A DNA stretch of 64,000 nucleotides, taken from assembly GCA_025358295.1 (NCBI GenBank), contig JANYJY010000010.1, positions 25,913 through 89,912 of the forward strand, in the 5' to 3' direction. The DNA is from Gammaproteobacteria bacterium (lineage in GTDB: Bacteria > Pseudomonadota > Gammaproteobacteria > Steroidobacterales > Steroidobacteraceae). How positions within the stretch are numbered: the stretch's first letter is position 1; each line of letters opens with the position of its first letter. The notes beneath the pieces were generated by a model. That model searched no databases. It had not been told where the DNA came from and saw only the letters and a program-made list of their open reading frames with translations. Shown here in pieces: positions 12,434-52,143 of this stretch. The position numbers and the translations under genes are program-made.

Positions 12434-14386
12434 TTATTGCGCTCGATAGGCCAGCAGCACATTTCCCGGCATGTGGAAATAGATTCCATAGCCTGAGTTG
12501 ACGATGACGAAACCGTCGCGGACAGCTGCGCCGGGACCGCCGAAGGAGCCGCCGTGAGCGGTGGCGCCCGACGTCGTGCGAACCTCCTGCGTGGTGTCGA
12601 ATTCCTTCAGCACCGCGCCGGTCTTGCCGTCGTAGGCGCGGAAGCGTCCGTCCATATGCCCGGCGAACACCACGCCGGGAACTGCAGTGACCGCCGCGGA
12701 GATGCCCGAATCGCAGAACGGCCGTCCCGCGCACACATCCGTCGCCGGCGTGGTCCACAGCACCTTGCCGGTGGCGGCATCGACCGCCGTGATTCCCGGC
12801 TGCGGCGCTTCCTTGGATGTGCGCCCCGTGTGCTCGTCCTTCATGTCGGATATGCCTGCGTAAATACGCGTGCCTTCCACGGCGACGCCGAAATGAATCC
12901 CGCCCTGGATGCCGCCGCGGCCGACACGCGTTTTCCACAGCAGCTTGCCGTGATCGTCGGGATCGAGGCCGAATAGCCAGCCGTTTTTCTGTGCTGCGAT
13001 GAGAATGTCGTGACCCGATGGCAGGGGCACCAGCACCGTGCCCGCACCGAAATCAACGTCTGGACCGTTCTCGGCCGGACAATTCGGATGGTCTATCGCC
13101 ATCATGCAGCCGACATTCCAGGCATCCCCGGCGAGCGCCTGGTAGGACCACATCATGTGACCGTCGCGCAGGCGAAATGCCAGCACCGAATCGCTGGTAT
13201 CGCTCGCCGGCGAGGAATAATTCTCGCCCGTGCCCACATACACCACGCCGCGCTTCCAATCCACCATGGGACTGTTCCAGATCGGCGCACCCGAGGGCGC
13301 GAAGATCCGCTTGCCGCTGGCCAGGGTCTTTACCGCGACCGGTTCCTGAGGAATCGAATAGGCCTTCCAGCGCTGCACGCCGTCGCGCACATTGAGCGCG
13401 ACTACTGCGCCGCGGAACTTGCAGCATTCGTAATTGGCATCGGCTGCGGTGGTCACCTCCAAAGAGGAGATGGGCACATACAGGGTCTCGGCGCTGAACG
13501 TCGGCGTCGCAGTGATGGTGGCGTTGGGATGATCGTCCACCTTGGCGCTCCACGCGAGCTTGCCGGTGAGCGCGTCGATGGAATACACGCGTGCGATCAC
13601 GTCGCCGAAGAACAATCGCCGCACCGGCTTGCCGTCGGCGTCCTTTTGCTCGTACGGCACGACGCCGGTGCGTACTTCGGCGCCCGCCTTGAAGGTCCAG
13701 CGCACGCAGCCGCTGCTGCGGTCGAGGGCATAAACCGTGCCGTCATAGCTGCCGACGTACACCGCCCCATAGGCAATGCTGGGCTGCGAACGGGCGCGAA
13801 TACCGCCGGGAAACTCGAAGGCCCAGGCGAGTTGCAGGTTGCGGACACCGGCCGCCGGCAGGCCTGCCGCGCCCGAGTCGACGAAGCGCGAATTGTTGTA
13901 GCCCCAGCCGGCTCGCAAAGGCGCCTCGGCCGTATCGAATTGCGCAGCCGCAGCCAGGCACATTTTCGGATGAGCATAATTCCGCGCCGCCGTGAGCGGA
14001 CCGCCGGACAGATATTCGGCCACCTGCACTCGCTGCGGCTCGCTCAAGGCCTGCGCCTGGCCCGCCATGAGCCCATGGGTGAGCGCCTCGTGAATGGTGG
14101 GCCCCGACAACATCTGCAAGAACATTTTTTGCGGCGCCTTCGGCACCTGGCCTTCATGACATTGCGCGCAATGATTCTTGAACACGGCGGCGCCGGGCAA
14201 AGTTTCCGGATCCACCGCCAGCTTGCGGGTGTCGAGTTCCGACACACTCTTGAGCGCATGCGGCGTTTCCGTGGTCTCAGGAGCTGCGGGGGGCACCGCA
14301 GCCATGGCTGCGCCGGTGGCGACGATACTGCAGGCCGCAAAGCAGCTCAGCAGGAATCCATGGCGCCTACTTTGTATATGTCTCAT
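12434..14386 (-). CDS. Exported quinohemoprotein: N-terminal cytochrome c domain + PQQ beta-propeller dehydrogenase (polyvinyl-alcohol-dehydrogenase-like)
   Basis: 650 aa. Has a Sec-type signal (MRHIQSRRHGFLLSCFAACSIVATGAAMA), a CAQCHEG haem c site, and repeated W-containing propeller blades (e.g. GSYDGTVYALD, GKLAWS). The start ATG overlaps the E1-beta stop (ATGA). Confidence 0.85.
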   Translation of the reverse strand: MRHIQSRRHGFLLSCFAACSIVATGAAMAAVPPAAPETTETPHALKSVSELDTRKLAVDPETLPGAAVFKNHCAQCHEGQVPKAPQKMFLQMLSGPTIHEALTHGLMAGQAQALSEPQRVQVAEYLSGGPLTAARNYAHPKMCLAAAAQFDTAEAPLRAGWGYNNSRFVDSGAAGLPAAGVRNLQLAWAFEFPGGIRARSQPSIAYGAVYVGSYDGTVYALDRSSGCVRWTFKAGAEVRTGVVPYEQKDADGKPVRRLFFGDVIARVYSIDALTGKLAWSAKVDDHPNATITATPTFSAETLYVPISSLEVTTAADANYECCKFRGAVVALNVRDGVQRWKAYSIPQEPVAVKTLASGKRIFAPSGAPIWNSPMVDWKRGVVYVGTGENYSSPASDTSDSVLAFRLRDGHMMWSYQALAGDAWNVGCMMAIDHPNCPAENGPDVDFGAGTVLVPLPSGHDILIAAQKNGWLFGLDPDDHGKLLWKTRVGRGGIQGGIHFGVAVEGTRIYAGISDMKDEHTGRTSKEAPQPGITAVDAATGKVLWTTPATDVCAGRPFCDSGISAAVTAVPGVVFAGHMDGRFRAYDGKTGAVLKEFDTTQEVRTTSGATAHGGSFGGPGAAVRDGFVIVNSGYGIYFHMPGNVLLAYRAQ

Positions 14387-15405
14387 GCCCTGTCCTCGTC
14401 CTTTAGTGCTTGGCGGATGGCTGCTTCGATTCGCGGCGGCCCGGGTACGTACAGGCGCTCGAGCGCCGGCGCGAACGGAATCGGCGTATGCGGTGGCGTC
14501 ACTTGGATGATGGACCGCTTGAGCGAGCGAAAGGCTTTTTGCCCGACGATGGCAGCAATATCGCTGGCCATGCCGCAGCGCGGCGGCGATTCATCGACGA
14601 TGACCAGCCGGCCGGTTCCTTGCACGCTTTCAATGATGGTGTCCTCGTCCAACGGCGAGGTGGTGCGCGGATCGATGAGATCGCAGGTAATCCCCTCCTT
14701 GGCGAGTGCATCGATGGCGCGCTCCGCGAAGGGCACCATGCGTGCAATGGCGACCACGGTCACGTGCTCGCCTTCGCGCACCAGAGCCGCCTCACCGAAG
14801 GGCACGGTGTAGGCAGCCTCCGGCACCTCGCCCTTGCGTGGATACAGCGCCTTGTGCTCGAAGAAAATCACCGGATCATCGTCGCGGATGGCCTGGATTA
14901 ACAGACCTTTCGCGTCGTAGGCATTGGAAGGGACAACGACTTTCAATCCGGGCACGGCCGTCAGCAGCGAATAGATGGCCTGCGAATGCTGCGGCCCCAT
15001 GTTCATGCCCGCGCCCATCGCCATGCGGATGACGACCGGGCAGGTGCTCTTGCCGCCGAACATGTAGCGAAACTTGGCTATCTGGTTGTAGATCTGATCC
15101 ATGCACACGCCGACGAAGTCGGCGAACATGATTTCAGCGACCGGCCGCAGGCCGGCCAGCGCCGCGCCGGCAGCGGCGCCAACGATAGCCGATTCGGAAA
15201 TCGGCGTATCGATCACGCGGTCCTCGCCGAACTTGGGCAACAGCCCTTTGGTCACGCCGAAAATACCGCCCGAGGCTTCACGCTCGCCGGAGGTGCCGCC
15301 GGCGCCGCCGGAGACATCTTCGCCGAGCACGATGACGCGTTCATCGCGCGCCATCTCTTGGTGCAGTGCTTGGTTGAGCGCATCGCGCATAGTGATCTGC
15401 GGCAT
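14383..15405 (-). CDS. TPP-dependent dehydrogenase E1 component, beta subunit (AcoB-like)
   Basis: 340 aa. Motifs include VIVLGEDV, VIDTPISESAIVGAAAGAAL and a transketolase-like C-terminal domain. Confidence 0.9.
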   Translation of the reverse strand: MPQITMRDALNQALHQEMARDERVIVLGEDVSGGAGGTSGEREASGGIFGVTKGLLPKFGEDRVIDTPISESAIVGAAAGAALAGLRPVAEIMFADFVGVCMDQIYNQIAKFRYMFGGKSTCPVVIRMAMGAGMNMGPQHSQAIYSLLTAVPGLKVVVPSNAYDAKGLLIQAIRDDDPVIFFEHKALYPRKGEVPEAAYTVPFGEAALVREGEHVTVVAIARMVPFAERAIDALAKEGITCDLIDPRTTSPLDEDTIIESVQGTGRLVIVDESPPRCGMASDIAAIVGQKAFRSLKRSIIQVTPPHTPIPFAPALERLYVPGPPRIEAAIRQALKDEDRA

Positions 15406-15429: not shown

Positions 15430-16410
15430 TCAGTACTGGATGTAGACGTCTGAGTAGAGATCCGCTTCGACAGGAGGCAGTGCGGCCTTGGCCTCCCTGA
15501 CGGCGGCATCGATCTGCGCCACGGCCTCTTGATCGATGGCGTCGAGCTCCGCCTGCGGCACGGAGCGATCGGCCTCGGTGCGCGCCCGGAAGCGCTTCAG
15601 GCAGTCCATGGTTACGCGCAGCTTCGCCACCTCATCCTTGGCACGATAGTTTTGTGGGTCGCCTTCGAAGTGGCCGTAGTAGCGCGTGATCTTGGCTTCG
15701 ATGGTGCTCGGGCCCTCGCCGTTCTTGGCGCGCGCCACGGCGCGCCCCATGGCGTCGTACATGGCGTGAAAATCGGCGCCGTCGACACACTCGGCGGGCA
15801 TGCCGAAGGCGCGGGAGCGTCCGGCGAGATCGCGCGAGCCCACGGCGTAGGCAGCTCCGGTGTGTTCGCTGTAGCCGTTGTTCTCCAATATGAATATCGC
15901 CGGCACGCGCAGCACCACGGCCATGTTCATGGCCTCGAAGACCGTGCCCTGATTGGCGCTGCCGTCGCCGCCGAAGGCCACACTCACGAAGCGGTTGCCA
16001 CGCAGCTTGCAGGCGATCGCGGCGCCCACCGCGATGGGCGGACCGCCGCCGACGATGGCGTTGGCGCCCAACATTCCCTTGGTCATATCGGCGATATGCA
16101 TGGACCCACCCTTGCCATGGCACAGACCGTCCTTGCGTCCGTAAATTTCCTTCATCATCCCGCCCACATCGCAGCCCTTGGCAATACAGTGGCCGTGCCC
16201 GCGGTGCGTGCTGACGATGTAGTCGGAGTCGCTGAGCTGCTCGCACACACCCACCGCGACGGCCTCCTGCCCCGCATACAGATGCGTGAACCCCGGGATC
16301 TCACCGGTGGCAATCTCGACATGCAGTCGTTCTTCGAACTCGCGGATGAGCTTCATCTGCCGGTAGGCGCGCAGCAGCCGCTCCTTGCTTAAGTTCACAC
16401 TGAAGGTCAT
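15430..16410 (-). CDS. TPP-dependent dehydrogenase E1 component, alpha subunit (acetoin-dehydrogenase AcoA-like)
   Basis: 326 aa. Has STHRGHGHCIAKG and the GDGSANQG TPP motif, which I recognise as the AcoA-type signature rather than PDH or BCKDH E1-alpha. The start overlaps the Rieske gene stop (ATGA). Confidence 0.9.
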   Translation of the reverse strand: MTFSVNLSKERLLRAYRQMKLIREFEERLHVEIATGEIPGFTHLYAGQEAVAVGVCEQLSDSDYIVSTHRGHGHCIAKGCDVGGMMKEIYGRKDGLCHGKGGSMHIADMTKGMLGANAIVGGGPPIAVGAAIACKLRGNRFVSVAFGGDGSANQGTVFEAMNMAVVLRVPAIFILENNGYSEHTGAAYAVGSRDLAGRSRAFGMPAECVDGADFHAMYDAMGRAVARAKNGEGPSTIEAKITRYYGHFEGDPQNYRAKDEVAKLRVTMDCLKRFRARTEADRSVPQAELDAIDQEAVAQIDAAVREAKAALPPVEADLYSDVYIQY

Positions 16411-17798
16411 TTACCCTCTCCTAATGTCCATGTGCCGCGAGCGGTGCCCGGCGGAAACAAATAGTCGTCGATCACTTTGTGAAAGTGTCGGATGCGCAGT
16501 TCCTGGCGCCCCAGCCACAGGCCGCGGAAGCCGCGCGAATGCATCCCGGCCTGCACATTCGGCAGATTGGCGGCGTCCTGATCGAGCACCAAGCCGATGG
16601 ATTTGTCGCCGTGTTTCCACTCCTGGTGCTTGGCGCGCTGCGGCCATTCCTGCCCCGCCGGGATCAGCTCATAGGTCCAGATGTCGTAGTACATCTTGTT
16701 CGGATCCGTGGCATGCGGCCGCTGGCGAAACACCCAGAAGTCATCGGCATGCAGATTGAGCGAGAGATTGGGGAAAATCGTGTAGTGATAGTCATCCGTG
16801 AGCTGATCGTCGTTCAGCTCCGAATAATCCCTGCCCTGCCCGGCGCCCCGCGCCCGCTTCTGTTTCTGCACGTCGCGGCGAATATTGGCGATCGGCTCAT
16901 CGTAGTCGGCCGGATCCATGCCCGCGCCCTTCATGATGGACTTGATGGAATCGGGAATGGTGTTCGGCTTGCGCACACGCGGCGACAAGGTCGCGAAGGG
17001 AATGAGGTAGCGATTGTGGCGATCGTAGCAATCGATCTGAATGTCCAGGTCGTGCAGGTACCAGAGCAACTGCGGATGAATGCCCTGAACGTGATAGCTC
17101 TCGTTGAAGGCATCGACGGAGGCCTTCCAATTGCAATCCCACTCCACAGTAATGTCGCGCGTCTGCACCATGCGCTCGAAGTGATAGGGATCGAGATGCT
17201 GAGGGATGGGCCGCAGAAATTCCTCCAGCGGCTCGGCATCCGGATTCATGGAGAACCACACAAAGCTGCCCCACTCCGTGCACTTCACTTCGCTCATGCC
17301 GTAGGGCGGCGCGCCCTGCTCAAAGGTGTCGAGATCGGGAATGCGCCGGTACGAGCCGTCGAGGTTGTATTCCCAGTGATGGTAGAGACACTTGAAGGTT
17401 TGGCTGGCCCCCGCCGAGCCCCGGCCGCAGGGGCGCAAGCGATTGCCGCGGTGCTGACAGACATTGTAAAAGCCGCGCGCGCTGCCGTCGGCCTGCCTGA
17501 CGACGATGATGGACTCCGCGCCCACTTCGGTCACGATGTAGTCGCCGGGTTCCGGCATGTCGAGCGAGCGGCCCGCGACCAGCCACACCTTGGTCCACAT
17601 CCGTTCCCACTCTAGCCGCATGAATTCTGCGGAGGTATAGCGGCGCTGATCGATCACGCCTGCCTCGAGCACAGGGTCCGGAACTTTTTCGTGCGGCGTG
17701 CCGGGCAACACGCCGTTGCGGCCGTCCGCACCCGGCTTGACCCGCGGCACCTTGGTATAGGGCGGAGATTTCGAGCGGCTGTGCAAATCGTCGGACAT
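16407..17798 (-). CDS. Rieske [2Fe-2S] non-haem-iron oxygenase, alpha subunit (paralog 1)
   Basis: About 463 aa. Has Rieske CQHRGNRL...CLYHHW and the mononuclear-iron motif NESYHVQGIHP. The listed start at 17804 is a TTG; the ATG at 17798 lies 2 nt after the ThuA-like stop. Confidence 0.88.
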   Translation of the reverse strand: MSDDLHSRSKSPPYTKVPRVKPGADGRNGVLPGTPHEKVPDPVLEAGVIDQRRYTSAEFMRLEWERMWTKVWLVAGRSLDMPEPGDYIVTEVGAESIIVVRQADGSARGFYNVCQHRGNRLRPCGRGSAGASQTFKCLYHHWEYNLDGSYRRIPDLDTFEQGAPPYGMSEVKCTEWGSFVWFSMNPDAEPLEEFLRPIPQHLDPYHFERMVQTRDITVEWDCNWKASVDAFNESYHVQGIHPQLLWYLHDLDIQIDCYDRHNRYLIPFATLSPRVRKPNTIPDSIKSIMKGAGMDPADYDEPIANIRRDVQKQKRARGAGQGRDYSELNDDQLTDDYHYTIFPNLSLNLHADDFWVFRQRPHATDPNKMYYDIWTYELIPAGQEWPQRAKHQEWKHGDKSIGLVLDQDAANLPNVQAGMHSRGFRGLWLGRQELRIRHFHKVIDDYLFPPGTARGTWTLGEGK

Positions 17799-17800
17799 GA

Positions 17801-18598
17801 TCAATTCCTCGTGCCGCGCGGCATCGACGCCCAGCGTATCCCTCGCCGCAGCAGCTCATGATACACAGGCAATTTCCAGCTGCCGCGTTCCACCGTGGGG
17901 TATTCCGCCATCATCGGACGCATATCGTACTTGCCTCGACAATGCCCGAGCGTGCAATACAACACCTCGCCCCCGGCGTAGGGATGCAGATACATCACCA
18001 GCTGCCGGTCACCCGGCATCTCAGTGCCCTGGCTGCCGGTTTCCGACACGGGCCGCGGCCACAGCTGCGCCGTGAATCCCGGAGCCTCGCCCCGATAATT
18101 CGTATGCAGCAGAGCGTGCTGAGTCCCATGGTACTCGCACAGGTACAGCTCATCGTCCACCTCGAAGGGTTCGATGCCCGCAACCAGGGGATGCGATGAA
18201 TCGCTCACCTCAACCTTGTAAGGGGCGATCGGCGGATGCGCGACGAATTGGCTGCCCAGCATGGCCATGAAATCCGGCGCGGTTCGCGGCGCATCCCAGC
18301 CGCGGCCCTTGAGAAATCGCAGCACCGAATTCGTGCCGTGCAGCGCCAGCCAGCGTCGTCCGGTTGACAAAAAATCGCGTAATGCAGACTGTTCGGCGTG
18401 CGCCGGAATGACGTCGCAGGTGTAGGTGATGAGAAAATCGCTGGCAGCGATCGCCGCGACGTCGCGGTAATCCTCGGCCACGCGAACGCGGATGTGCTCG
18501 TGCTCGGCAAGCAGCTTCAGGATCTCCAGCCGTGCGTAATCCATGTCGTGGTATAGCCCGCCACAAACCAGGTAGCCGTTCACTGGAGCAGTTGCCAT
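17801..18598 (-). CDS. ThuA-domain (class I glutamine-amidotransferase-like fold) protein
   Basis: 265 aa. The layout is ...DFLITYTCD...WLALHG...FVAHPP...F.VDDELY, as in ThuA-like proteins. Family assignment is from memory of the domain pattern only. Confidence 0.6.
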   Translation of the reverse strand: MATAPVNGYLVCGGLYHDMDYARLEILKLLAEHEHIRVRVAEDYRDVAAIAASDFLITYTCDVIPAHAEQSALRDFLSTGRRWLALHGTNSVLRFLKGRGWDAPRTAPDFMAMLGSQFVAHPPIAPYKVEVSDSSHPLVAGIEPFEVDDELYLCEYHGTQHALLHTNYRGEAPGFTAQLWPRPVSETGSQGTEMPGDRQLVMYLHPYAGGEVLYCTLGHCRGKYDMRPMMAEYPTVERGSWKLPVYHELLRRGIRWASMPRGTRN

Positions 18599-18639: not shown

Positions 18640-19401
18640 TCATAACTGCACGCGTTTCGTGAAGCCGTTGTCGGCCACGATGTTCGCGCCGGTGACCAAG
18701 CTTGAGGCCGGGCTCGCAATGAAAACGATGATGCGCGCGATTTCTTCCACTGTGCCCATGCGCCCGCAGGGGATCTGTTTCATGATCGAGTCGAAGAACT
18801 TCGCCTGAGTGCCCTTGATCATCTCCCAGGCACCGCCTTCGAAGTAGATCGGTCCGGGCGACACGGTATTCACACGTACGGCTTTCTTGCCCACATATTG
18901 CGACAGCTGCTTGGAATAGGTAATCAATCCGGCCTTGATGGCGTTGTAGGCCATGGGCGCGGCAAAGGTTTCCACCGCATTGGTCGAGCCGATGATTACG
19001 ATGGAACCGGATCCGGATTTCTCCAGATGCGGCATGAGCGCCTCGCAGCCGCGCACGGTGTGCAGCATGTCGATTTCGAAATTCCGCACCCAATTCTTTT
19101 CACTGTCCATGCCGCCGCCGCCGCTGACACCGGGAATGAATATGTCGCAGCCGCCGAGCGCGGTTGCCGCCCGCTCCAACCACGCCTTGTACGCCTCACC
19201 GTCGCGCACGTTCACGGCCTCACCGAACACTTCCACGTCGGGGCGTTTTACGGCTTCAACCGCCTGGGCGACTTCCTCCGGGGTACGGGCGCAGAATGCG
19301 ACATTGACGCCCTCGGCCACCAGCAGTTCGACCACACCGCGTCCGATGCCCTTGGTCGCACCCGTGACTATTGCTCGCTTGCCCCGTAGCCCAAGATCCA
19401 T
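18640..19401 (-). CDS. Short-chain dehydrogenase/reductase
   Basis: 253 aa from the ATG at 19401 (MDLGLRGKRAIVTGATKGIGRG), with a GGAG SD upstream. Catalytic motif YNAIKAG. The listed start at 19452 is a TTG that would run into the palindrome at 19451. Confidence 0.85.
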   Translation of the reverse strand: MDLGLRGKRAIVTGATKGIGRGVVELLVAEGVNVAFCARTPEEVAQAVEAVKRPDVEVFGEAVNVRDGEAYKAWLERAATALGGCDIFIPGVSGGGGMDSEKNWVRNFEIDMLHTVRGCEALMPHLEKSGSGSIVIIGSTNAVETFAAPMAYNAIKAGLITYSKQLSQYVGKKAVRVNTVSPGPIYFEGGAWEMIKGTQAKFFDSIMKQIPCGRMGTVEEIARIIVFIASPASSLVTGANIVADNGFTKRVQL

Positions 19402-19450
19402 TGCATCGCTCCTCAAATGACGTAGTGTAGTCGTCGTCGCCCCGTAAAAC

Positions 19451-19468
19451 AAACAGTCAAGACTGTTT
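19451..19468. promoter_or_regulatory. Island palindrome site 1: AAACAGTCAAGACTGTTT (perfect 8+8 inverted repeat)
   Basis: Lies in the intergenic gap, about 50 nt upstream of the SDR ATG at 19401 that heads the SDR - ThuA - Rieske - E1ab - PQQ operon. An A-run precedes it and a T-run follows. Confidence 0.6.
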
Positions 19469-21062: not shown

Positions 21063-21356
21063 TCAGCTCTTCCAATCCAGCAATTGCAGATCCATGTCGC
21101 CTTCCACGCACGCCATGATGGGCGGCACGAGACGATCGTGAAATGGGCTGGCCTGGTGCGCCTGAAATGCCGCTTCGTCCTTGAATCGGGCGTACACCAC
21201 GTAGGTGCGTGCCTTGGTGCGGCTCTTGATCACATCATAGACCAGAGTGCCCGGTTCGTCGGCGTGAGTCAGTTCGGAAAGCTCCTTTTGCAGCCGTTCG
21301 AACTCAGTCTCCTTGCCTTGCTTGATAGCCAATGTGGCGATGAAAGTCGTCGACAT
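21063..21356 (-). CDS. Antibiotic-biosynthesis-monooxygenase (ABM, ferredoxin-like dimeric alpha-beta barrel) domain protein
   Basis: 97 aa from the ATG at 21356 with an AGGAG SD: MSTTFIATLAIKQGKETEFERLQKEL...YARFKDEAAFQAHQASPFH. The longer listed ORF (to 21425) would overlap the upstream ABM gene. Confidence 0.65.
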   Translation of the reverse strand: MSTTFIATLAIKQGKETEFERLQKELSELTHADEPGTLVYDVIKSRTKARTYVVYARFKDEAAFQAHQASPFHDRLVPPIMACVEGDMDLQLLDWKS

Positions 21357-29488: not shown

Positions 29489-29500
29489 GTGCGGTATGCG

Positions 29501-39143: not shown

Positions 39144-39168
39144 TTTTATTTTGCTGCAGGGGGGAGAA

Positions 39169-40143: not shown

Positions 40144-40144
40144 T

Positions 40145-44725: not shown

Positions 44726-46581
44726 CTACCGTCGACGGAAAAGACCAACAACACATTGCCGCCCATCCGGCCGCCGAATAGGTAACCGGAATTCACCACC
44801 ACACGGCCGTTCGCAACGACCGCGCCGGCACTCTCTATCGAGCCGCCGTGCGCCTTACCGCCGCCCACCGTATCGAATTGACCATGGGTATCGAAGGACC
44901 AAAGCAGCTGACCGTCGCGTTCACGGTAGGCGCGCAGCCAGCCGTCGAAGGACGGCTGAAACACAGCGCCCGGAATCGACGTCGCCGGCGGCGAATAACC
45001 GCGATCGCAAGCCGGCTTGTCCGCTGCCGCGCAGACATCGGGCGCGGCCGCGAACCACTTGATCGCGCCGCTCTCGGGACTAAGTGCAAACAGCCCGGGT
45101 TTCGCTTCGCCCTTCTCGGTGCCGAGAAATATCGTATCGGCATTCGGCGCGTACAAAACCGATGCTGAGGCGGCCATGCCCCAATGCACTCCTCCGGCAA
45201 ATCCTCCCCGTCCATACTTGACGTGCCAGACCAGCGTGCCGTCGTCCGGGTTCAACGCGAAAACATCGGCAGATTTCTCTCCCACGAGCAGCACATCTTT
45301 GCCGCTCTTGAGTTTATGCAGGATGGGCGGCGCGCCGATATCGAGATCCGGGCCGTTCTCCAGAGGACAGTTCGGTCCGCCGCCGATGAAACACGCCATG
45401 TTCCAGGCATCGTGCTGAATCGACTGATGCCACCACAACATGCGACCCGTATCCAAATCGTAGGCGATGACTGCATCGCTTTGCGGTACCGCGGGTGAGG
45501 TGTAGGACTCGCCGGTGCCCACGTACAGGCGCCGACGCTTTACATCGATGGTAGGAGAATTCCAAACCGGCGCACCGGCCGGAGCGTGACGCAATGTCCC
45601 CGCCGATGTGCGCTCACCGGTCGCTTGCGGCTCACCCGGAATCGAATAGCTTCGCCACACGACATGTCCGTCAGTGGCGTCCAGTGCCGCCACACCGCCG
45701 CGGAAGGTGCAGCATTCGTAACTGGGATCCGCCGCCGCCGACCATTCATTCGACGACAGGGGAACGTAGAGACGGCCGGCGTAGTAGCGCGGCGAACCCG
45801 TGATGGTCAGCCGCGGATGCGCATCCACTCGGGTCGTCCATAACAGCTTGCCGCTCAAGGCATCGAGCGCATACGCATTGCCGCTGAAATCGCCGAACCA
45901 CAATCGGGGCCGTGCCTTGACATCACCCTTGCGCCAGGGCTCGAGGATCGGGCTGACGCGAACCTCCGCCGCGGCCTGAAAACTCCAGCGAACGCAACCG
46001 GTGTCGTAGTCCAGCGCATACACCGTGCCGTCCTGACTGCCGACGAAAATTGCACCCGCACCGATGGTGGGCTGCGAGCGGGCGCGCGAGGCGCCCGGAA
46101 AGGCAAAAGCCCATTTAAATTTCAAGCGCGGCACGTCGCGGGCGTCGAGACCTGCCGCAGCCGCATCGATGTGGCGGGAATTCTCGAGGGTCATGCCCCA
46201 ACCCGCCAGTGGTGGGGGGCTGCGCAAATCGAATTGCTGGCGATCCGCCGGACACTCAGGTCCCGCCACCTGCCCCGAGACGGGCAGAGCGGCGCCACCC
46301 AGGAATTCCGCCACCGACTGCCGCTCGCCGGGGGTCAGGTGGGAGCCCTGCTCCTGCATCGCCCCGGACTCCAGGGCCGACATGATCGCCCGCGGACCGA
46401 GCATTTGGAATTCAACCGAATGAGGCGCCCGCGGTACCCCGCCTTCATGACAGGTGGCGCAAATCGAGCCGTAGATTTCCGCGGGTGGCCGCTCAGCGGC
46501 TGCGGAAACCCCTGAATTTAAAGCCAAAATCGCCAGGATCACCGATCCCGACAGCCGTGCCAGCAAGCATTTATTTTGCAA
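44722..46581 (-). CDS. Exported quinohemoprotein: cytochrome c + PQQ propeller (PVADH-like, paralog 2)
   Basis: 619 aa. TTG start with a GGGGAG SD 8 nt upstream. Has a signal peptide (...ILALNSGVSAAAE), a CATCHEG haem c site and propeller repeats (GSQDGTVYALD, GKLLWT). Confidence 0.85.
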   Translation of the reverse strand: MQNKCLLARLSGSVILAILALNSGVSAAAERPPAEIYGSICATCHEGGVPRAPHSVEFQMLGPRAIMSALESGAMQEQGSHLTPGERQSVAEFLGGAALPVSGQVAGPECPADRQQFDLRSPPPLAGWGMTLENSRHIDAAAAGLDARDVPRLKFKWAFAFPGASRARSQPTIGAGAIFVGSQDGTVYALDYDTGCVRWSFQAAAEVRVSPILEPWRKGDVKARPRLWFGDFSGNAYALDALSGKLLWTTRVDAHPRLTITGSPRYYAGRLYVPLSSNEWSAAADPSYECCTFRGGVAALDATDGHVVWRSYSIPGEPQATGERTSAGTLRHAPAGAPVWNSPTIDVKRRRLYVGTGESYTSPAVPQSDAVIAYDLDTGRMLWWHQSIQHDAWNMACFIGGGPNCPLENGPDLDIGAPPILHKLKSGKDVLLVGEKSADVFALNPDDGTLVWHVKYGRGGFAGGVHWGMAASASVLYAPNADTIFLGTEKGEAKPGLFALSPESGAIKWFAAAPDVCAAADKPACDRGYSPPATSIPGAVFQPSFDGWLRAYRERDGQLLWSFDTHGQFDTVGGGKAHGGSIESAGAVVANGRVVVNSGYLFGGRMGGNVLLVFSVDGR

Positions 46582-46746: not shown

Positions 46747-49302
46747 ATGCGACGTTTTAAATTAAATGGGGTCGGCGGTACGCTGGCCACCCTTACTTTG
46801 GCCCTCGGGCCGATGGCCGGCGCCTATGCGGCCGAGGAAGGCGCCACCGCCACCAATTCGGGTTCTCTCGAGGAAATCGTGGTGACCGGCACCAAGCGCG
46901 ATGTGACCGCACAGAGCGTCCCGATCTCGATGACGGCCATCGGCGCCGCGGAACTCGCGAGCGTACATGTCAATGACATCAAGGCGCTGGCGACTCTGGC
47001 GCCCGGCCTGGTGCTGTCGAATCCCGCGGGCTTTAACGCCGCAGGCGGCGGCATGCGCGGTACCGGCACCAACATCATTCTGGTCACCCAGGACGCACCC
47101 GTCAGCTTCCTGGTGGATGATTTCGTTCTGTCGCAGGTCACCTCGCAATTCGTCACCCTGTTCGACACGCAACAGGTCGAGGTTTACCGCGGACCGCAGG
47201 GCACCCTGTTCGGTGCCAACGCGACCGGCGGTGTGATCTCCATCATTTCGAAGAAGCCGGAACTCAACAAGTACTACGCAGAGAGCGAGGCGACCTACGG
47301 TCATTACGGCAATGGCGCGGGCATTGCGAGTGTCAAACAGGCCTTCAATCTTCCGCTGAGCGACACCCTGGCCTTCAGGCTGGCGGCAATCTACGACTAC
47401 GACGCCGGCTACTACACCAACAACAAGAATAGTGCGACCTTCCCGGGCAACGTGCCGCTATGGAGCGCTTTTGGCATTCCCCAGGGAACTCCCCTGCCGC
47501 CCGGAGTGAATCCACTGACCACCGGCAACGGTGAGCGCCTCGGCGGTCGCGACGTACTGGCGGCCAAAGCCAAATTGTTGTGGCAGCCTAACGACTATTA
47601 CTCGGCATTGCTGACCGGCGAAGTGGTGCACGACCGCTCCGGATCACCGCCGGGCGTCAACGAGAGTTCCCCGACCGACCTGATTCCCGCATTGGGCTTT
47701 CCCGGCATCGGTCAAACGCATCAGGGCAATGTTTTCTCGACGTTGATCACCAACAATGCCGATATTCAGGAACCGCAGGGACACCGCGTGGATAACAACG
47801 GCATTTACCTGACGCAAACCCTGACTCAGTCGTACGGTGAATTCAAGTCGATCACCGGGTACCGTAACGAGCGTGCACGCTTGCCGAGCACCTACACCGG
47901 CGAATCGTTTCTGACTTTGTTCGATTCCATGCGCAACTCCAACCGCTACACGTTTCAGCAGGAAGTCCGCTTCGCATCCAACTTCAAGGGACCTTTCAAC
48001 TTTGTCGCCGGCGCGAATTATTTCCACGATTCCTTCGATTTTCTTGCTTACTACTCGGTGGGTTTGACCGCACTGATTCCGGTCATCAATCCGACGACGG
48101 GCACGTTCTTGACGCCCGCAGGCCAGGTCAGCCTGAACACCGAGGCGCTGCACGACTATCAGTTCCAAGGCACCACGCAGCAACGTCACCAGGAGGCTCT
48201 GTTCTGGGACGGAAACTATGACATCACGGATAAACTCCAGTTCACGGCCGGCGTGCGCTTCAGCGAGGACCATAAGAAATTCCTGCGCTATGTCAACGGT
48301 GGCGGCCCCTGCACCTCTCTGACGGCGCCGGACGATATCGAAGCCGGCGGCGGATCGTGCCTCGACTCGCATTCCAATTTCATCAGCCGCGCGGGAATTC
48401 AGCCCGGCGCGTTTAACGGCGGCGTGTTCAGCCCGCTGCCGCTATCGGCCTTCGGTACCGTCGTCAACGACAGTAGCAGCTGGAATAAGACCACGTTCCG
48501 CACGGTGCTTGATTACAAGCCCGAGCCGGGTCAATTGGTGTATTTGAGCTACGCCACGGGCTTCTTGTCCGGAGGGTTCTCTGAGACCTGCGCGACGGTC
48601 GCGCGCTGCAAGTATGATCCGGAGACCAATAACAATTTGGAATTGGGTTATAAGTCGGATCTCATCGACAACACCCTGCGCCTGAATGCGGCCCTGTACT
48701 TGACCAAGTACAACAATCTGCAGCAGGCGGTGGTGGCAGCCTACACGGCTTCCGACGGCACGGGCCAACAGGAGACGGTGACGGTCAACACGGGAACCTC
48801 GCGTGCGACCGGCTTGGATCTGGAGATGAACTGGATCGCAATGCACGGGTTGCGCATCGACGCTTCGCTCAACTACCTGCATCATATTTACACTTCCGGC
48901 TCCATTCCGGATCTCGTGAAGATTCCGGCAGGCCCCTCGACTCCCTTGAGCCAGTACCAGGTGACGTTCTCGCCGACCTGGAAGGGCAATTTGAGCGCCA
49001 ACTACGATATCCCCTTCGCGCCTCTAAATCGCTGGACGCTGCACGCGGACGGCAACTACCAGGGCACCGCACAGACTGATGTGTACAACACCGTCAACAC
49101 GCAGATGCAGAGCCGCTTGCTGTTGAATGCCTCGGCGACGTATCACGATGCCGCCGGCAAATGGACGTTCACCCCGTGGGTGTCGAACATCGCGGATAAG
49201 GTCTATCGGGTCGCGGCACTCCCGGTCGCGGGTTTGTGGGACTTCACCAACTATGGGGCGCCGCGCTCATTCGGCGTTACCGCGAATCTGCGCTTCGAAT
49301 AG
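46747..49302 (+). CDS. TonB-dependent outer-membrane receptor (paralog 2)
   Basis: About 851 aa from the ATG at 46747 (AAGGGGAG SD): MRRFKLNGVGGTLATLTLALGPMAGAYAAEE.., with the plug region LEEIVVTGTKRDVTAQSVPISMTAI. Confidence 0.9.
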   Translation: MRRFKLNGVGGTLATLTLALGPMAGAYAAEEGATATNSGSLEEIVVTGTKRDVTAQSVPISMTAIGAAELASVHVNDIKALATLAPGLVLSNPAGFNAAGGGMRGTGTNIILVTQDAPVSFLVDDFVLSQVTSQFVTLFDTQQVEVYRGPQGTLFGANATGGVISIISKKPELNKYYAESEATYGHYGNGAGIASVKQAFNLPLSDTLAFRLAAIYDYDAGYYTNNKNSATFPGNVPLWSAFGIPQGTPLPPGVNPLTTGNGERLGGRDVLAAKAKLLWQPNDYYSALLTGEVVHDRSGSPPGVNESSPTDLIPALGFPGIGQTHQGNVFSTLITNNADIQEPQGHRVDNNGIYLTQTLTQSYGEFKSITGYRNERARLPSTYTGESFLTLFDSMRNSNRYTFQQEVRFASNFKGPFNFVAGANYFHDSFDFLAYYSVGLTALIPVINPTTGTFLTPAGQVSLNTEALHDYQFQGTTQQRHQEALFWDGNYDITDKLQFTAGVRFSEDHKKFLRYVNGGGPCTSLTAPDDIEAGGGSCLDSHSNFISRAGIQPGAFNGGVFSPLPLSAFGTVVNDSSSWNKTTFRTVLDYKPEPGQLVYLSYATGFLSGGFSETCATVARCKYDPETNNNLELGYKSDLIDNTLRLNAALYLTKYNNLQQAVVAAYTASDGTGQQETVTVNTGTSRATGLDLEMNWIAMHGLRIDASLNYLHHIYTSGSIPDLVKIPAGPSTPLSQYQVTFSPTWKGNLSANYDIPFAPLNRWTLHADGNYQGTAQTDVYNTVNTQMQSRLLLNASATYHDAAGKWTFTPWVSNIADKVYRVAALPVAGLWDFTNYGAPRSFGVTANLRFE

Positions 49303-49388: not shown

Positions 49389-50618
49389 TTACAAGCTGGT
49401 CGGTTGTTCCAACAAGGCCCTCAATGCCCCGAGGAATTGCGCTCCGACGGCGCCATCCACCACCCGATGATCCGCTGACAGCGTCAGAGTCGCGGTTTTC
49501 GCAATCAGTTGGCGGCCGTTCCTGACGATGACCCGATCGGCCGCCGCGCCCACCGCGAGAATCGCCACCTGCGGCGGATTGATGATGGCATCGAAACGAT
49601 CGATGCCAAACATGCCGAGATTGGAAATCGTGAATGACCCCCCGGATATCTCCTCGCGGGTCAGGCGGTTCGTGCGCGCGCGCTCGGCGAAATCGCGAAC
49701 CTCGGTGCCGATCTGTGCCGGCGTCTTTAGCTCCGCACCGCGCACCACGGGCGTGATCAAGCCGTTCTCGGTGGCGATGGCAATGCTGATGTCGGCGTGC
49801 GCCGACTTGAGAATTTCATCGCCGACCAATTGCGCGTTCACCGCCTTGTGCGCCATCAAGGTGATGGCCGTGGCGCGCACCAGCAAGTCGTTGACGGAAA
49901 CCTCCCCGCCCGAGGCATTCAGCGCGGCGCGCTGCTCGAGCAGAGCAGTAAAATCGACGTCGACCTCGAGGCGGTAGTGCGGGATCTCCTGAGTCGATGC
50001 CAGCAGCCGCTTGGCGATAGTCGCGCGCATCGATGACATCTTTTCCCGCACCGGCGCGGCCGACGGAGCCGCTACCGCCGCATTGCCCGCTTGCGGGGTC
50101 GCCCCGGACCCCGACTTGGCGGCATAGGCTTCCACATCCTCTTTGGACACACGCCCATTGCGTCCCGTGCCCTGCACCTTGCTGATGTCGATACCCAGCC
50201 GCTCCGCCACGCGACGCGCGATGGGGCTGATGCGCCCCTCCTCGGTCGGCGCCGCGGCGGGCGCCGGAGTCTGCGCCACGCCGGCTGCAGCAGGCGATGA
50301 GTCCGGTTCGAAGCTGGTATTGGGCGGCTTGAACTCGCGCACAAAGGCATTGATTTGCTCATCCGATACCGAAGGCTCGGCGAATACGGCGATAAGAGCA
50401 CCGACATTTTCGACGGCGCCCGCTTCCGCGAGAATTTGCCGAAGCACGCCGCTGACCGGCGCTTCAACGGAATTCACAATTTTTTCGGTCTCAACGTCCA
50501 GCAAGGTGTCGCCTTTTTGCACCGTTTGGCCCGGCGCGGCGTGCCATTGCGTGATGGTGCCCTGTTGCATCTCGATGCCCCACTTCGGCATCGTGATTGG
50601 AAAAATCTGCTGGCTCAT
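49389..50618 (-). CDS. Dihydrolipoamide acyltransferase (E2) with one lipoyl domain
   Basis: 409 aa. Has a lipoyl-lysine box (LLDVETEKIVNSVEAP), a peripheral-subunit-binding domain (ISPIARRVAERLGIDISKVQGTGRNGRVSKEDV) and the catalytic DHRVVDG. Confidence 0.9.
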   Translation of the reverse strand: MSQQIFPITMPKWGIEMQQGTITQWHAAPGQTVQKGDTLLDVETEKIVNSVEAPVSGVLRQILAEAGAVENVGALIAVFAEPSVSDEQINAFVREFKPPNTSFEPDSSPAAAGVAQTPAPAAAPTEEGRISPIARRVAERLGIDISKVQGTGRNGRVSKEDVEAYAAKSGSGATPQAGNAAVAAPSAAPVREKMSSMRATIAKRLLASTQEIPHYRLEVDVDFTALLEQRAALNASGGEVSVNDLLVRATAITLMAHKAVNAQLVGDEILKSAHADISIAIATENGLITPVVRGAELKTPAQIGTEVRDFAERARTNRLTREEISGGSFTISNLGMFGIDRFDAIINPPQVAILAVGAAADRVIVRNGRQLIAKTATLTLSADHRVVDGAVGAQFLGALRALLEQPTSL

Positions 50619-50781: not shown

Positions 50782-52143
50782 ATGTCGGTCAATTACAAAG
50801 TTGAGTGGCCCATGAATCTACATGCGCCCGCCGGTTCGCTCGAAGCGAAACAGGCGGCCGTAGACAATGGACTCGACGTCCCCGATCCGTCGCGCTACTC
50901 ATCCGCCGACTACATGAAAACGGAATGGGAGCAGCTTTGGCCGCGCGTCTGGCTGCTGGCCGGCGTCACTCCCGACCTGCCGGAGAGCGGCGATTACCAT
51001 GTGTTCGAGATCGGCCACGAAGAGATTCTGCTGGTGCGCCAGGACGACGCCTCGATCAAGGCGTTTTACAATGTCTGCCCGCATCGCGGCAATCGAATCT
51101 CCCTGAACGATCGAGGCAGCGTCGGTAAATTCACCTGTGCATTCCATGGCTGGCAATTCGCCTGCGACGGCACGCTCCTCAAGATCACGGATGAGGATAC
51201 CTTCGACCCACGCCTGATTGCGCACCGGCCCTCTTTGAGCGAAGTGCGGTGCGATATCATCGGCGGTCTCATATTCGTCAACATGGACGGTAAGGCGCCG
51301 CCGTTGCGGGAGTGGATCGGCTTGCCGCCGGGCTACATCGAGAACTACGAAATCGACAAGATGAACGTGGTGCGCCATGTACGCAGCGAATGGCGCGCGA
51401 ATTGGAAGACGGGCATCGATGCGTTCTACGAAACCTATCATCTGCCCTTCATCCACCCGCAAACTCAGGGCGTGATGGAAGATTTCAGTCAGTACGATCT
51501 TTACCCCAATGGCTTCAGCCGCATGATCGTGCCCATCGGCGTCAAGTCGCACCGTGTGGGCGATCAGATCAGCGTCGATCCTTACCAGCAATTCATGATG
51601 CAGGAAGCGGGCATCGACCCCACGAAATTCAGCGGCACCGCACGGGAAGTTCGCGTCGCCATCCAGCAGGCCAAGCGCTCCCGCGGCAAGCGTTTCGGGC
51701 TCGAGTACTACGACAAACTCACCGATGCACAGCTGACGGATAGCTGGGCAACTGGATATTTTCCGAATGTGCAGATCGGCATGCATCCGGAAGGCGTGTT
51801 CATCATGCGCTTTCTGCCGCACGCCACCGATCCGGAGCGTTTCTACTACGACAACATGACGATGTTCCGTTATGTCGAGGATCCCGGCTACACGGTGCCC
51901 GGCTGGATGGGCCTGCCCGCGGGCATGGACGTCACCGGCGCGACGCGCCCGGAGATCGAGCGCGTGCCTGTGGATGTGCGCCCGAATCTGGGCGAAGTTC
52001 TCGATCAAGATGTGGAACTGGTGGCCGCGGTGCAACGCGGCTCGAAGTCACGCGGCTTCCGCGGGCCGTTGTGGTCCGATCAGGAACAACGGGTACGACA
52101 CTTCCACCGCGAGCTAGACCGCTACATCAATCGCGAGAAGTAG
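50782..52143 (+). CDS. Rieske non-haem-iron oxygenase, alpha subunit (paralog 3)
   Basis: 453 aa. Has CPHRGNRI...CAFHGW and the iron motif YETYHLPFIHP. GGAGGG SD. Confidence 0.88.
   Translation: MSVNYKVEWPMNLHAPAGSLEAKQAAVDNGLDVPDPSRYSSADYMKTEWEQLWPRVWLLAGVTPDLPESGDYHVFEIGHEEILLVRQDDASIKAFYNVCPHRGNRISLNDRGSVGKFTCAFHGWQFACDGTLLKITDEDTFDPRLIAHRPSLSEVRCDIIGGLIFVNMDGKAPPLREWIGLPPGYIENYEIDKMNVVRHVRSEWRANWKTGIDAFYETYHLPFIHPQTQGVMEDFSQYDLYPNGFSRMIVPIGVKSHRVGDQISVDPYQQFMMQEAGIDPTKFSGTAREVRVAIQQAKRSRGKRFGLEYYDKLTDAQLTDSWATGYFPNVQIGMHPEGVFIMRFLPHATDPERFYYDNMTMFRYVEDPGYTVPGWMGLPAGMDVTGATRPEIERVPVDVRPNLGEVLDQDVELVAAVQRGSKSRGFRGPLWSDQEQRVRHFHRELDRYINREK

Follow-up and report, generated by a model that had tools for sequence, protein, structure and literature searches.

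The 64,000-nucleotide window analysed here (positions 25,913 to 89,912 of contig JANYJY010000010.1, assembly GCA_025358295.1, from a gammaproteobacterium of the Steroidobacteraceae) carries, around positions 12434 to 52143, a dense run of genes for uptake, oxidation, oxygenation and CoA-level chemistry, and it raises the question of whether these genes act together and, if so, on what substrate. An initial annotation had described them as a 40-kb multi-compartment catabolic island that fits no nameable pathway. We find a well conserved catabolic gene cluster in which known enzyme families stand in an undescribed combination, and which consists of a conserved core, some 30 kb in two parts (11.3-37.4 and 50.6-53.9 kb), and an accessory module of 13 kb (37.4-50.6 kb). 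It is, in our judgement, somewhat more probable than improbable that the whole is a catabolic supercluster forming a single regulon, with the predicted route set out below and under the control of a TetR-family protein.

Genes were called from open reading frames (ORFs) and codon-position GC content, and the candidates were scanned against Pfam and NCBIfam; signal-peptide-like N-termini of exported proteins were called by eye. Nearly every item of the earlier inventory was found at its given position: two TonB-dependent receptors (TBDR1 and TBDR2), three pyrroloquinoline quinone (PQQ) dehydrogenases, two of them with a haem-c domain (cPQQ1 and cPQQ3, besides PQQ2), three Rieske oxygenase alpha subunits (RO1 to RO3), a cytochrome P450, two E1 alpha/beta pairs with one E2, three glutathione S-transferases (GST1, GSTnu and GST3), two VOC and three ABM proteins, an acyl-CoA ligase, a family III CoA-transferase, an acyl-CoA dehydrogenase (ACAD) and a thiolase. 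As had been claimed, the gene set covers the outer membrane, periplasm and cytoplasm. At least five short-chain dehydrogenases/reductases (SDRs) had been counted; SDRs are present, but only four (SDR1 to SDR4) lie inside 12434-52143, with six in the whole window. Likewise, the enoyl-CoA hydratase (ECH) exists, but at 52147-52938, four bases past 52143, where the island had been taken to end. The GC content is even along the whole window, at approximately 0.60-0.65, so that the region is not a compositional island and shows no compositional boundary; the genes do form a unit, but the discrete 40-kb island gave way to a conserved core and an accessory module. Rfam and tRNA scans of the window detected nothing.

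The evidence for a single regulon begins with an 18-bp palindrome, AAACAGTC-NN-GACTGTTT, which has flanking A and T tracts and is common to approximately 40 genes in at least 12 transcription units. Reading of the intergenic regions together with a regular-expression search located eight intergenic sites, most of them in divergent promoter regions. Their form is an A-run, [A/T]CAGT[C/A]-NN-GA[C/T]TGT and a T-run, with the consensus A-rich/ACAGTC-NN-GACTGT/T-rich. When the pattern ACAGTMNNGAYTGT was searched with up to two mismatches, 17 strand-hits were obtained where 5.98 +/- 2.49 were expected, and 17 was not attained in any of 100 shuffles. The eight sites, to which no strand is assigned, are given here with their counterparts among related loci (L numbers). 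A genome-collection scan anchored on the 481-aa fusion protein of the core gave 80 loci; gene frequencies refer to 48 long loci.

19453..19466, no strand: operator site 1, ACAGTCAAGACTGT, between SDR2 and SDR1; a site at the equivalent position in L001 and L048
20293..20310, no strand: operator site 2, degenerate, TCAGATCTGACTTT, divergent SDR2/TetR region; two strong sites in the counterpart region of Sphingobium sp. RAC03
27115..27128, no strand: operator site 3, degenerate, upstream of TBDR1; positional match in L007, L009, L011, L012, L015, L016, L066 and L079
28197..28210, no strand: operator site 4, the most conserved, divergent GST1/RO2 region
33745..33758, no strand: operator site 5, divergent SDR3/ligase region; kept between SDR3 and the ligase in close loci
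39124..39141, no strand: operator site 6, upstream of E1 alpha set 2; positional match in L087 and L088
46623..46636, no strand: operator site 7, divergent cPQQ3/TBDR2 region; positional match in L086 and L087
50713..50730, no strand: operator site 8, divergent E2/RO3 region; a site between SDR4 and RO3 in L004, L007, L010, L048 and L079

Across 81 related loci (1.4 Mb) there were 126 operator matches with at most one mismatch, 117 of which lay outside mapped genes and at the same promoters. The sequence of site 4, AAAAACAGTCnnGnCTGTTTCTT, precedes the RO2 orthologue in approximately 60 loci, even where RO2 identity is just 59%. Other recurring positions are SDR3/ligase, SDR4/RO3, ligase/ACAD and GSTnu/receptor, together with the region upstream of the receptor. 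In the cultured strain RAC03 two copies of the operator stand between the SDR and TetR genes, and weaker ones precede other genes of the cluster. In a related Paracoccus cluster the motif was not found, a GntR gene being present there instead. The candidate regulator is encoded between the SDR and ABM genes.

20385..21035, plus strand: TetR-family regulator (TetR_N), candidate repressor for the shared operator

This is the sole regulator gene of the cluster, and one operator site lies in its divergent promoter region. TetR orthologues with 80-93% identity occupy the same place in close metagenome-assembled genomes (MAGs), and those of L075 and RAC03 have 43-50% identity (RAC03, 43%), the operator being present in both. 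A TetR-family gene accompanied the operator in the loci examined. The comparative evidence strongly favours one regulon, with TetR as the presumed binding protein. TetR would repress all of the units until a substrate or intermediate of the pathway binds to it. The view that the shared palindrome marks one functional and regulatory unit is upheld by the eight sites, their enrichment, the approximately 60 related loci, RAC03 and the conserved linkage described below.

A role for the palindrome as a bidirectional terminator was considered and rejected. The hairpins are AU-rich and weak (-3.6 to -10.8 kcal/mol) and no gene ends at the sites, which argues for DNA operators rather than terminators. 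Consensus scans for sigma-70 promoters and terminators returned fewer sites than shuffles, and none at the operators. A further operator-like sequence, ACCGTCATGACTGA (2 mismatches), lies at 32174-32187 of the window, exactly at the junction of the thiolase stop and the start of the CMD gene; it may be a chance match, because it contains the ATG start codon.

The gene order itself is conserved. The 80 loci belong nearly all to uncultured Gammaproteobacteria, Steroidobacteraceae or Steroidobacterales, from soil, glacier-fed streams, freshwater and marine habitats, and these habitats point to a natural substrate. A separate search with the quinohaemoprotein gave metagenome orthologues of 85-88% identity, the named ones being Steroidobacteraceae MAGs. 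The closest genome contig, contig_40181 (L001), has 85-93% amino-acid identity and the order MaoC-SnoaL-cPQQ-E2-E1-RO1-ThuA-SDR-SDR-TetR-ABM-ABM-ferredoxin-ACAD-CoA-transferase-TBDR-GST, continuing as GST-RO2-fusion-thiolase-CMD-SDR3-ligase-VOC-VOC-SDR4-RO3. The conserved block reaches to 11335 on the left (MaoC, SnoaL) and to 53882 on the right (ECH and a lyase resembling HMG-CoA lyase, HMGL), and the order RO3-ECH-HMGL recurs in L002, L004, L007 and L010. Compact versions of about 20 kb (L054, L074) keep E1 alpha, E1 beta and E2, ABM, the ligase, ferredoxin, RO3, ACAD and RO2, as well as the fusion, thiolase, SDR3, VOC, ThuA, cPQQ and TBDR. The GSTs, RO1 and the P450 are the variable genes among loci. 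Scattered and unlinked orthologues had been named in the initial annotation as a result that would speak against one unit; orthologues proved to be linked across Steroidobacteraceae-like MAGs.

Related clusters also exist in cultured strains, namely Sphingobium sp. RAC03 (plasmid pBSY17_1, 837-861 kb), Paracoccus pantotrophus DSM 2944 (pPAN2, 0-26 kb) and Niveispirillum cyanobacteriorum TH16 (plasmid, 111-124 kb). Like the window, these encode RO2 (57% identity), ACAD (71-73%) and E1 alpha/beta (60-68%), and they share SDRs, ThuA, VOC, NTF2, ABM, the ligase, the CoA-transferase and thiolase/DUF35; in RAC03 the TetR gene and the operator are present as well. Unlike the window, none of the three contains a PQQ dehydrogenase, the Paracoccus cluster has an ABC transporter, a GntR regulator and its own LpdA, and in RAC03 the DUF35 part is a separate small protein. 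A megablast of 24.5 kb against plasmid sequences gave just three short fragments of 74-78% identity. The literature searched returned no characterisation of the RAC03, Paracoccus or Niveispirillum clusters, and full-text searches returned no description of the present one.

The same comparison bears on whether several independent catabolic operons became neighbours by chance under one general-purpose regulator. Such a reading would account for the modular layout, in which the accessory module lies at different places in different genomes, for the variability of the GSTs, RO1 and P450, and for flanks that are also catabolic (to the left, genes for valine/isobutyryl-CoA; to the right, oxoprolinase-like and MFS genes). 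Against it, the same operator and the co-localisation recur across Gamma- and Alphaproteobacteria, and the compact 20-kb versions still join TBDR, cPQQ, E1/E2, the Rieske oxygenases, the thiolase complex, ligase and ACAD. We regard chance neighbourhood as quite improbable and prefer a single regulon.

What the regulon might act on was approached through its enzymes. The core genes for uptake and periplasmic oxidation are as follows.

12434..14386, minus strand: cPQQ1, exported quinohaemoprotein resembling polyvinyl-alcohol dehydrogenase (PVADH) (Pfam PQQ, PQQ_2 and Cytochrome_CBB3; CAQCH at residue 73; signal-peptide-like N-terminus)
24533..27028, minus strand: TBDR1 (plug and barrel domains; core-conserved; signal-peptide-like N-terminus)

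Breakdown of polyvinyl alcohol (PVA) or another 1,3-polyol polymer is the reading that these quinohaemoproteins bring to mind: hydroxyl groups would be oxidised in the periplasm, and the cytoplasm would consume methyl-ketone- and carboxylate-ended fragments. cPQQ1 and the accessory cPQQ3 both have the rare PVADH architecture, with the domain order N-terminal haem c followed by PQQ propeller, a single CXXCH and a signal-peptide-like N-terminus; KEGG-based annotation names orthologues PVADH, and those of cPQQ1 are named 'polyvinyl alcohol dehydrogenase (cytochrome)' at JGI. The pva operon of Sphingopyxis sp. 113P3 (PvaA, oxidised-PVA hydrolase and cytochrome c) likewise encodes a periplasmic quinohaemoprotein with haem c and PQQ, and a TBDR, an adenylate-forming enzyme and an SDR are nearby in both regions. 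However, cPQQ1 is just 35.8% identical to the 113P3 enzyme, and approximately 35 further genes of the window are without an equivalent in the pva region. The window also has no separate gene for cytochrome c, and a tblastn search of the window with the 113P3 gene upstream of pvaA (a putative oxidised-PVA hydrolase) gave a best E-value of 1.6, in agreement with the earlier remark that such a hydrolase is missing. The cluster is also found in MAGs from pristine glacier streams, soil and the sea, which is hard to square with a synthetic polymer. PVA breakdown is the least probable of the readings considered here.

As a side observation, a cPQQ1 homologue (51% identity) in L084 (Novosphingobium sp. 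THN1 plasmid pTHN, 206-248 kb) lies next to two TonB-dependent receptors, with a weakly similar E1 alpha/E1 beta/E2 set also beside it; the pairing of quinohaemoprotein and E1/E2 therefore recurs outside the core cluster. No core cluster was present in the contexts of the PVADH-like matches in Aromatoleum EbN1, Novosphingobium THN1 or PP1Y.

Hydroxylation is represented by three core oxygenase subunits and a ferredoxin.

16407..17804, minus strand: RO1, Rieske oxygenase alpha subunit (Rieske, Ring_hydroxyl_A; no beta subunit nearby; best PDB match CntA, 95 bits)
28277..29488, plus strand: RO2, Rieske oxygenase alpha subunit, core (Pfam; best PDB match CntA, carnitine monooxygenase, 112 bits)
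50782..52143, plus strand: RO3, Rieske oxygenase alpha subunit, core (Pfam; in 31 of 48 loci)
21713..22054, plus strand: Rieske-type ferredoxin, proposed electron donor of the oxygenases (Rieske, Rieske_2; HcaC and AndAb ferredoxin models match)

The Rieske and 2-His motifs are intact in all three oxygenases, which are of the alpha-only kind and far from all solved structures, the best being carnitine monooxygenase at 95-112 bits. KshA was not among their PDB structure matches. The listed ferredoxin ORF (21470-22054) is over-extended at its 5' end, the L001 orthologue having 113 aa.

Downstream of RO2 lie the fusion and thiolase genes, followed here by the other genes of CoA-level chemistry.

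29489..30934, plus strand: PhlA/HMG-CoA-synthase-like protein fused to DUF35, 481 aa (NF003274, 103 bits; zf-ChsH2, OB_ChsH2_C)
30945..32168, plus strand: SCP2-type thiolase (NF004810, 639 bits, over cut-off; listed ORF from 30846, likely start M34)
11335..11826, minus strand: MaoC-like (R)-hydratase (Pfam MaoC_dehydratas; outside the earlier coordinates; adjoins SnoaL and cPQQ in L001, L075 and L090)
22069..23238, minus strand: ACAD (three ACAD domains; one of the most conserved neighbours, present in 35 of 48 long loci)
23311..24489, plus strand: family III CoA-transferase (CoA_transf_3, 352.7 bits)
33777..35495, plus strand: acyl-CoA synthetase, the ligase (AMP-binding; every NCBIfam match under cut-off)
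52147..53882, minus strand: ECH (52147-52938) and HMG-CoA-lyase-like protein (from 52965) (Pfam; outside the earlier coordinates)

The best PDB matches of the fusion protein are PhlA (9skh and 5m3k; 60 bits to PhlA), followed by the archaeal HMG-CoA synthase (HMGCS) and DUF35 in 6esq. Its DUF35 part has a four-cysteine zinc ribbon and an OB domain, and the nucleophile cysteine of its HMGCS-like part is replaced, which makes HMG-CoA synthase activity unlikely. The thiolase has its NLCATG nucleophile cysteine and its HDCF and GHP motifs, and its gene occurs in 48 of 48 loci. By these features it appears to correspond to a PhlC-like partner of the fusion, in a complex of the PhlABC or thiolase/HMGCS/DUF35 type. 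DUF35 acts as a scaffold in PhlABC-like and thiolase complexes (PMC12329534). PhlABC of Pseudomonas protegens and the archaeal thiolase/HMG-CoA synthase/DUF35 complex have the same three parts as the window, but here the PhlA-like and DUF35 parts are fused, the catalytic cysteine is missing and the setting is catabolic; compared with PhlABC, identity to PhlA is low and the fusion is co-transcribed with a Rieske oxygenase.

A similar logic is found in ibuprofen degradation, where ipfABDEF encode a CoA ligase, a Rieske dioxygenase acting on the CoA ester, the SCPx thiolase IpfD and the DUF35 protein IpfE. Compared by description, ipf and the window share a ligase, a Rieske oxygenase and C-C cleavage by thiolase/DUF35; in contrast, IpfAB has alpha and beta subunits where the window's oxygenases are alpha-only, and ipf has no PhlA-like domain. 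The nearest PDB entries of the CoA-transferase are a CaiB/BaiF protein, SUGCT and formyl-CoA transferases. An assignment of this protein as an alpha-methylacyl-CoA racemase was considered and found unsupported, the nearest structures being true CoA-transferases with no racemase among the matches listed.

These oxygenases and the thiolase bear on whether the cluster serves a non-canonical catabolism of the side chain or rings of steroids, sterols or bile acids. Many carriers are Steroidobacteraceae, alpha-only Rieske oxygenases, a DUF35-thiolase pair, CoA ligase, ACAD, TBDR and P450 are combined, and the P450 matches CYP125-like and vitamin-D hydroxylases at approximately 155-170 bits. The steroid-type features listed in the initial annotation did not survive closer comparison, however: the Rieske oxygenases are not KshA-like, having CntA-type proteins as their best structure matches, and the domain to which DUF35 is fused is PhlA/HMGCS-like rather than a hydratase, the partner of the fusion being a true SCP2-type thiolase. 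That thiolase keeps Cys, HDCF and GHP, unlike the Ltp2 aldolase and the distinct catalytic set of Sal (PMC12329534). No KstD, HsaA-D, Ipd or FadD3-type signatures were found in the window, the lack of KstD and Hsa in any window scan confirming what had been reported. The bile-salt side-chain cluster of Sphingobium Chol11, which differs in content, was rejected as a match; it has a KshA-type oxygenase and amidases and no thiolase. Steroid catabolism is very unlikely in our view.

The second C-C cleaving system is encoded with RO1, two SDRs and a ThuA-domain protein.

14383..15405, minus strand: E1 beta, set 1 (Transket_pyr, Transketolase_C; NF006667, 335 bits)
15430..16410, minus strand: E1 alpha, set 1 (E1_dh, 267.6 bits; TIGR03182, 308 bits, under cut-off)
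17801..18598, minus strand: ThuA-domain protein, cytoplasmic (Pfam ThuA; a conserved core gene of distant loci, found too in the clusters of RAC03 and Paracoccus)
18640..19452, minus strand: SDR1 (adh_short_C2)
19475..20230, minus strand: SDR2 (adh_short_C2, 179.9 bits)

An acetoin type had been proposed for the E1/E2 proteins. Two E1 pairs and an E2 do exist, but acetoin-type and pyruvate dehydrogenase (PDH)-type assignments are not separable: orthologues are auto-named both pyruvate and acetoin E1, and the best models are PDH-type, near or under their cut-offs. Acetoin dehydrogenase (AcoABC) and PDH likewise combine a heterodimeric thiamine-dependent E1 alpha/beta with a lipoyl E2, whereas the window proteins score under the PDH equivalog cut-offs, no E3, AcoX or AcoR is present in the window, and the E1/E2 genes share their operon with genes for a Rieske oxygenase, ThuA and two SDRs.

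The remaining genes of the core are given next.

11841..12425, plus strand: SnoaL_4/NTF2-like protein (Pfam SnoaL_4, 92.7 bits; beside the cytochrome-c/PQQ gene in L001, L086 and L087)
21066..21356 and 21380..21670, minus strand: two tandem ABM genes (Pfam ABM; tblastn identity to the L001 ABM genes 92% and 87%)
27224..28150, minus strand: GST1 (GST_N_3, GST_C; GST-like family of approximately 310 aa, uncharacterised; best PDB matches 4kf9 and 3ic8, structural genomics)
32180..32770, plus strand: CMD/AhpD-like protein (Pfam CMD; in 30 of 48 loci)
32793..33677, minus strand: SDR3, 2,4-dienoyl-CoA reductase-like (NF005811, 208 bits, under cut-off; in 38 of 48 loci)
35502..36029 and 36042..36569, plus strand: two VOC (Glyoxalase_4) genes (175 aa each, mutual identity 39%)
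36606..37409, plus strand: SDR4 (Pfam; last gene before the accessory module)

Between SDR4 and RO3 the window carries the genes of the accessory module.

37406..38116, plus strand: GSTnu, Nu-class (YfcG-like) GST (NF010579, 223 bits against a 332-bit cut-off; YfcG, 222 bits; NaGSTNu, 5uun, 154 bits)
38113..39030, plus strand: GST3, paralogue of GST1 (46% identity)
39151..40143 and 40073..41173, plus strand: E1 alpha and E1 beta of the second set (identity to set 1, 58% and 63%)
41182..41472 (approximate), plus strand: third ABM gene (tblastn with the L087 ABM gene, 79% identity)
41418..43457, plus strand: PQQ2, exported PQQ dehydrogenase (PF01011, 742 bits; TIGR03074, 658 bits, model positions 152-783; signal-peptide-like N-terminus)
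43454..44725, minus strand: cytochrome P450 (Pfam; nearest PDB entry approximately 200 bits)
44722..46581, minus strand: cPQQ3, second PVADH-like quinohaemoprotein (CATCH at residue 41; 46% identical to cPQQ1)
46672/46747..49302, plus strand: TBDR2 (plug and barrel; 34% identical to TBDR1; signal-peptide-like N-terminus)
49389..50618, minus strand: the window's sole E2 lipoyl acyltransferase (Biotin_lipoyl, E3_binding, 2-oxoacid_dh)

In all close relatives, among them L002, L004, L007, L010, L027, L048 and L066, SDR4 is directly followed by RO3, which identifies 37406-50618 as an accessory module at this position; in L001 the E2 gene has its place between cPQQ and E1 beta. As a second set of genes paralogous to the core, the module has identities to it of 46% for cPQQ, 58% for E1 alpha, 63% for E1 beta, 46% for GST and 34% for TBDR, and it holds three operator copies. 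It is kept as a unit in other MAGs (L086-L088), in L087 directly beside core genes, and it probably serves a related substrate variant. The GSTnu-GST3 pair is kept in L017, L022, L031, L032, L037, L051, L086 and L087. The P450 is missing from the homologous modules in L086, L087 and L088 and is particular to the module version of the window, while two adjacent Creatinase_N/Peptidase_M24 genes, which lie between GST3 and E1 alpha in L086 (5379-7901) and L087 (4894-7453), are missing from the window.

PQQ2 is a soluble form within the membrane glucose/quinate/shikimate dehydrogenase family and has neither a membrane anchor nor a cytochrome domain. An exact-sequence look-up of this protein matched no record. 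Separately, a 569-aa fragment 100% identical to PQQ2 (P0121) was found on a 4.4-kb contig in the Logan assembly of a public sequencing run, indicating that the same or a near-identical organism is present in public read data.

With the three GSTs in place, a further reading can be weighed, in which the substrate is a lignin-derived or other aryl-ether oligomer: an SDR would oxidise it, a GST would cleave the ether, the Nu-class GST would remove glutathione, and the Rieske oxygenases would be demethylases or hydroxylases. TBDRs serve lignin-oligomer uptake in sphingomonads. SDR4, GSTnu and GST3 stand in one operon, as do the SDR, GST and Nu-class GST functions of the beta-aryl-ether pathway (LigD/L/N/O, LigE/F/P, and LigG or NaGSTNu), GSTnu is related to NaGSTNu (154 bits), and the SnoaL/NTF2 gene is adjacent; an NTF2 gene occurs in the RAC03 and Paracoccus clusters as well. 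GSTnu may possibly be a glutathione lyase or a disulfide reductase, judging from its family. However, GST1 and GST3 belong to the uncharacterised family of 3ic8 and 4kf9 and are not of the LigE/F type; LigG reached just 24-41 bits in their PDB search (41 bits for GST1), and LigE and LigF were not among their PDB matches at E <= 0.01, which agrees with the earlier statement that no beta-etherase pair is recognisable. Nor did the Pfam and NCBIfam scans of the window find a ring-cleavage dioxygenase, as had been stated, or an O-demethylase or protocatechuate pathway gene; the window has no lower aromatic pathway. The GSTs are missing from the compact core versions, and marine MAGs carry the core too. 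Lignin-derived oligomers are an unlikely substrate. With the PVA, beta-etherase and steroid systems each failing in defining features, and no published match found, the cluster does not fit any pathway that can be named, as was originally supposed.

Under the reading that we prefer, that of a single regulon, a bulky or hydrophobic hydroxylated substrate would enter through the TonB-dependent receptors, and its alcohol groups would be oxidised in the periplasm by the PVADH-like quinohaemoproteins, with help from the accessory quinate/glucose-dehydrogenase-like PQQ enzyme. In the cytoplasm the carboxylate form would be activated to a CoA ester by the ligase or the CoA-transferase. Desaturation and hydration by ACAD, ECH and MaoC would then act alongside hydroxylation of unactivated carbons by the P450 and by the three alpha-only Rieske oxygenases, which the Rieske ferredoxin would supply with electrons, and the SDRs would turn the new alcohols into ketones. 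The SCP2-type thiolase, in a complex like PhlABC or HMGCS-DUF35, would cut 3-oxoacyl-CoA or beta-diketone-type intermediates, and the PDH/acetoin-type E1 alpha/beta and E2 would turn an alpha-ketol, 1,2-diketone or 2-oxoacid into an acyl-CoA. The pair formed by a GST of the approximately 310-aa family and the Nu-class lyase probably strips a substituent next to a carbonyl, by a logic like that of beta-etherases.

In a concrete scheme, hydroxylation beside a ketone would yield an alpha-ketol or 1,2-diketone, and a thiamine-dependent, acetoin-like cleavage of this product would open alicyclic rings or remove methyl-ketone ends. The methyl-ketone ends would arise from 3-methyl-branched enoyl-CoAs by ECH and HMG-lyase-type cleavage. 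Our leading guess, held with low confidence, is that the substrate is a natural alicyclic or methyl-branched (terpenoid- or isoprenoid-like) alcohol or acid; it draws on the flanking isobutyryl-CoA genes (IcmF-type mutase) and on habitats rich in phototroph and plant lipids. We think that a synthetic polymer is a less likely substrate than a terpenoid- or isoprenoid-like compound.

Several points weigh against this account. Each biochemical step is assigned from family membership, most NCBIfam matches fall under their curated cut-offs, and the VOC, ThuA, ABM, CMD and SnoaL proteins fit no assignable role. The cluster is without an oxygenase reductase, an E3, an inner-membrane transporter or a PQQ-synthesis gene. 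On the regulatory side, the binding of TetR to the operator is something that we infer, no TetR was detected within 10 kb in the majority of the distant loci, and no strong operator copy was seen in the window for the units at 21-24.5 kb (ABM, ferredoxin, ACAD and CoA-transferase). The terpenoid-like guess is derived solely from reaction logic, flanking genes and habitat.

To our knowledge, PVADH-like quinohaemoproteins, an E1/E2 and Rieske operon, and a fused PhlA-DUF35 protein with an SCP2 thiolase are enzyme types not known to cooperate. Steroidobacteraceae-like bacteria are abundant in soils and streams and are mostly uncultured, and a tightly conserved cluster of 30-45 kb in such bacteria is probably directed at a common pool of natural carbon with an as yet unmapped route of breakdown. 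It is tempting to speculate further, although we hold this to be possible but doubtful, that the cluster represents an undescribed but widespread route by which unactivated alicyclic or methyl-branched carbon skeletons are opened, whether of terpenoid type or from carboxyl-rich alicyclic natural matter. In it, Rieske hydroxylation beside a carbonyl, SDR oxidation to an alpha-ketol or 1,2-diketone and thiamine/lipoyl E1-E2 cleavage, which would save the energy of the bond in the form of an acyl-CoA, would be combined with a PhlABC-like thiolase complex and PVADH-like pre-oxidation under one TetR. In metagenomes, genes of the PVADH-like kind are routinely taken for "plastic-degradation" markers, and many of those seen here sit in a natural-product pathway context without a PVA hydrolase. 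The conserved operator and the related clusters in the cultured strains RAC03, DSM 2944 and TH16 make the question experimentally tractable.

The flanks of the cluster were also inspected. The left flank (852-11287) is a valine/isobutyryl-CoA-type block with genes for an aldehyde dehydrogenase, an ECH_2 protein (3-hydroxyisobutyryl-CoA-hydrolase-like), an SDR, a long ACAD with Acyl-CoA_dh_C, a 1113-aa IcmF-type fused B12 mutase/MeaB and an ECH. Also present are an AraC-family gene (3-755) and a gene for a Peripla_BP_2 protein, a cobalamin or siderophore-type binding protein (4451-5251). In the closest genome, L001, the left flank is not kept next to the cluster. The right flank (52965-57757) consists of the HMG-CoA-lyase-like gene and a 1275-aa fused hydantoinase A/B (oxoprolinase-like) on the minus strand; further right are two MFS transporters, an SDR, a class III aminotransferase, a Usp gene and a TANGO2-family gene. 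No operator copies were seen in the right flank.

GC-rich perfect inverted repeats without a T-run occur at both convergent junctions, 24490-24532 and 49303-49388 (GCATGGGTCGCG...CGCGACCCATGC; GCGTGCGGCGC...GCGCCGCACGC; CACCGGCCCC...GGGGCCGGTG). They probably delimit operons, either as transcription stops or as hairpins that stabilise the mRNA. At the outer edges of the conserved block, 11288-11334 and 53883-53929 are two intergenic stretches of very high AT content; both contain CTTATA-type repeats (for example CCTTATAAATATATCTTATAGG) and may be sites for a different regulator.

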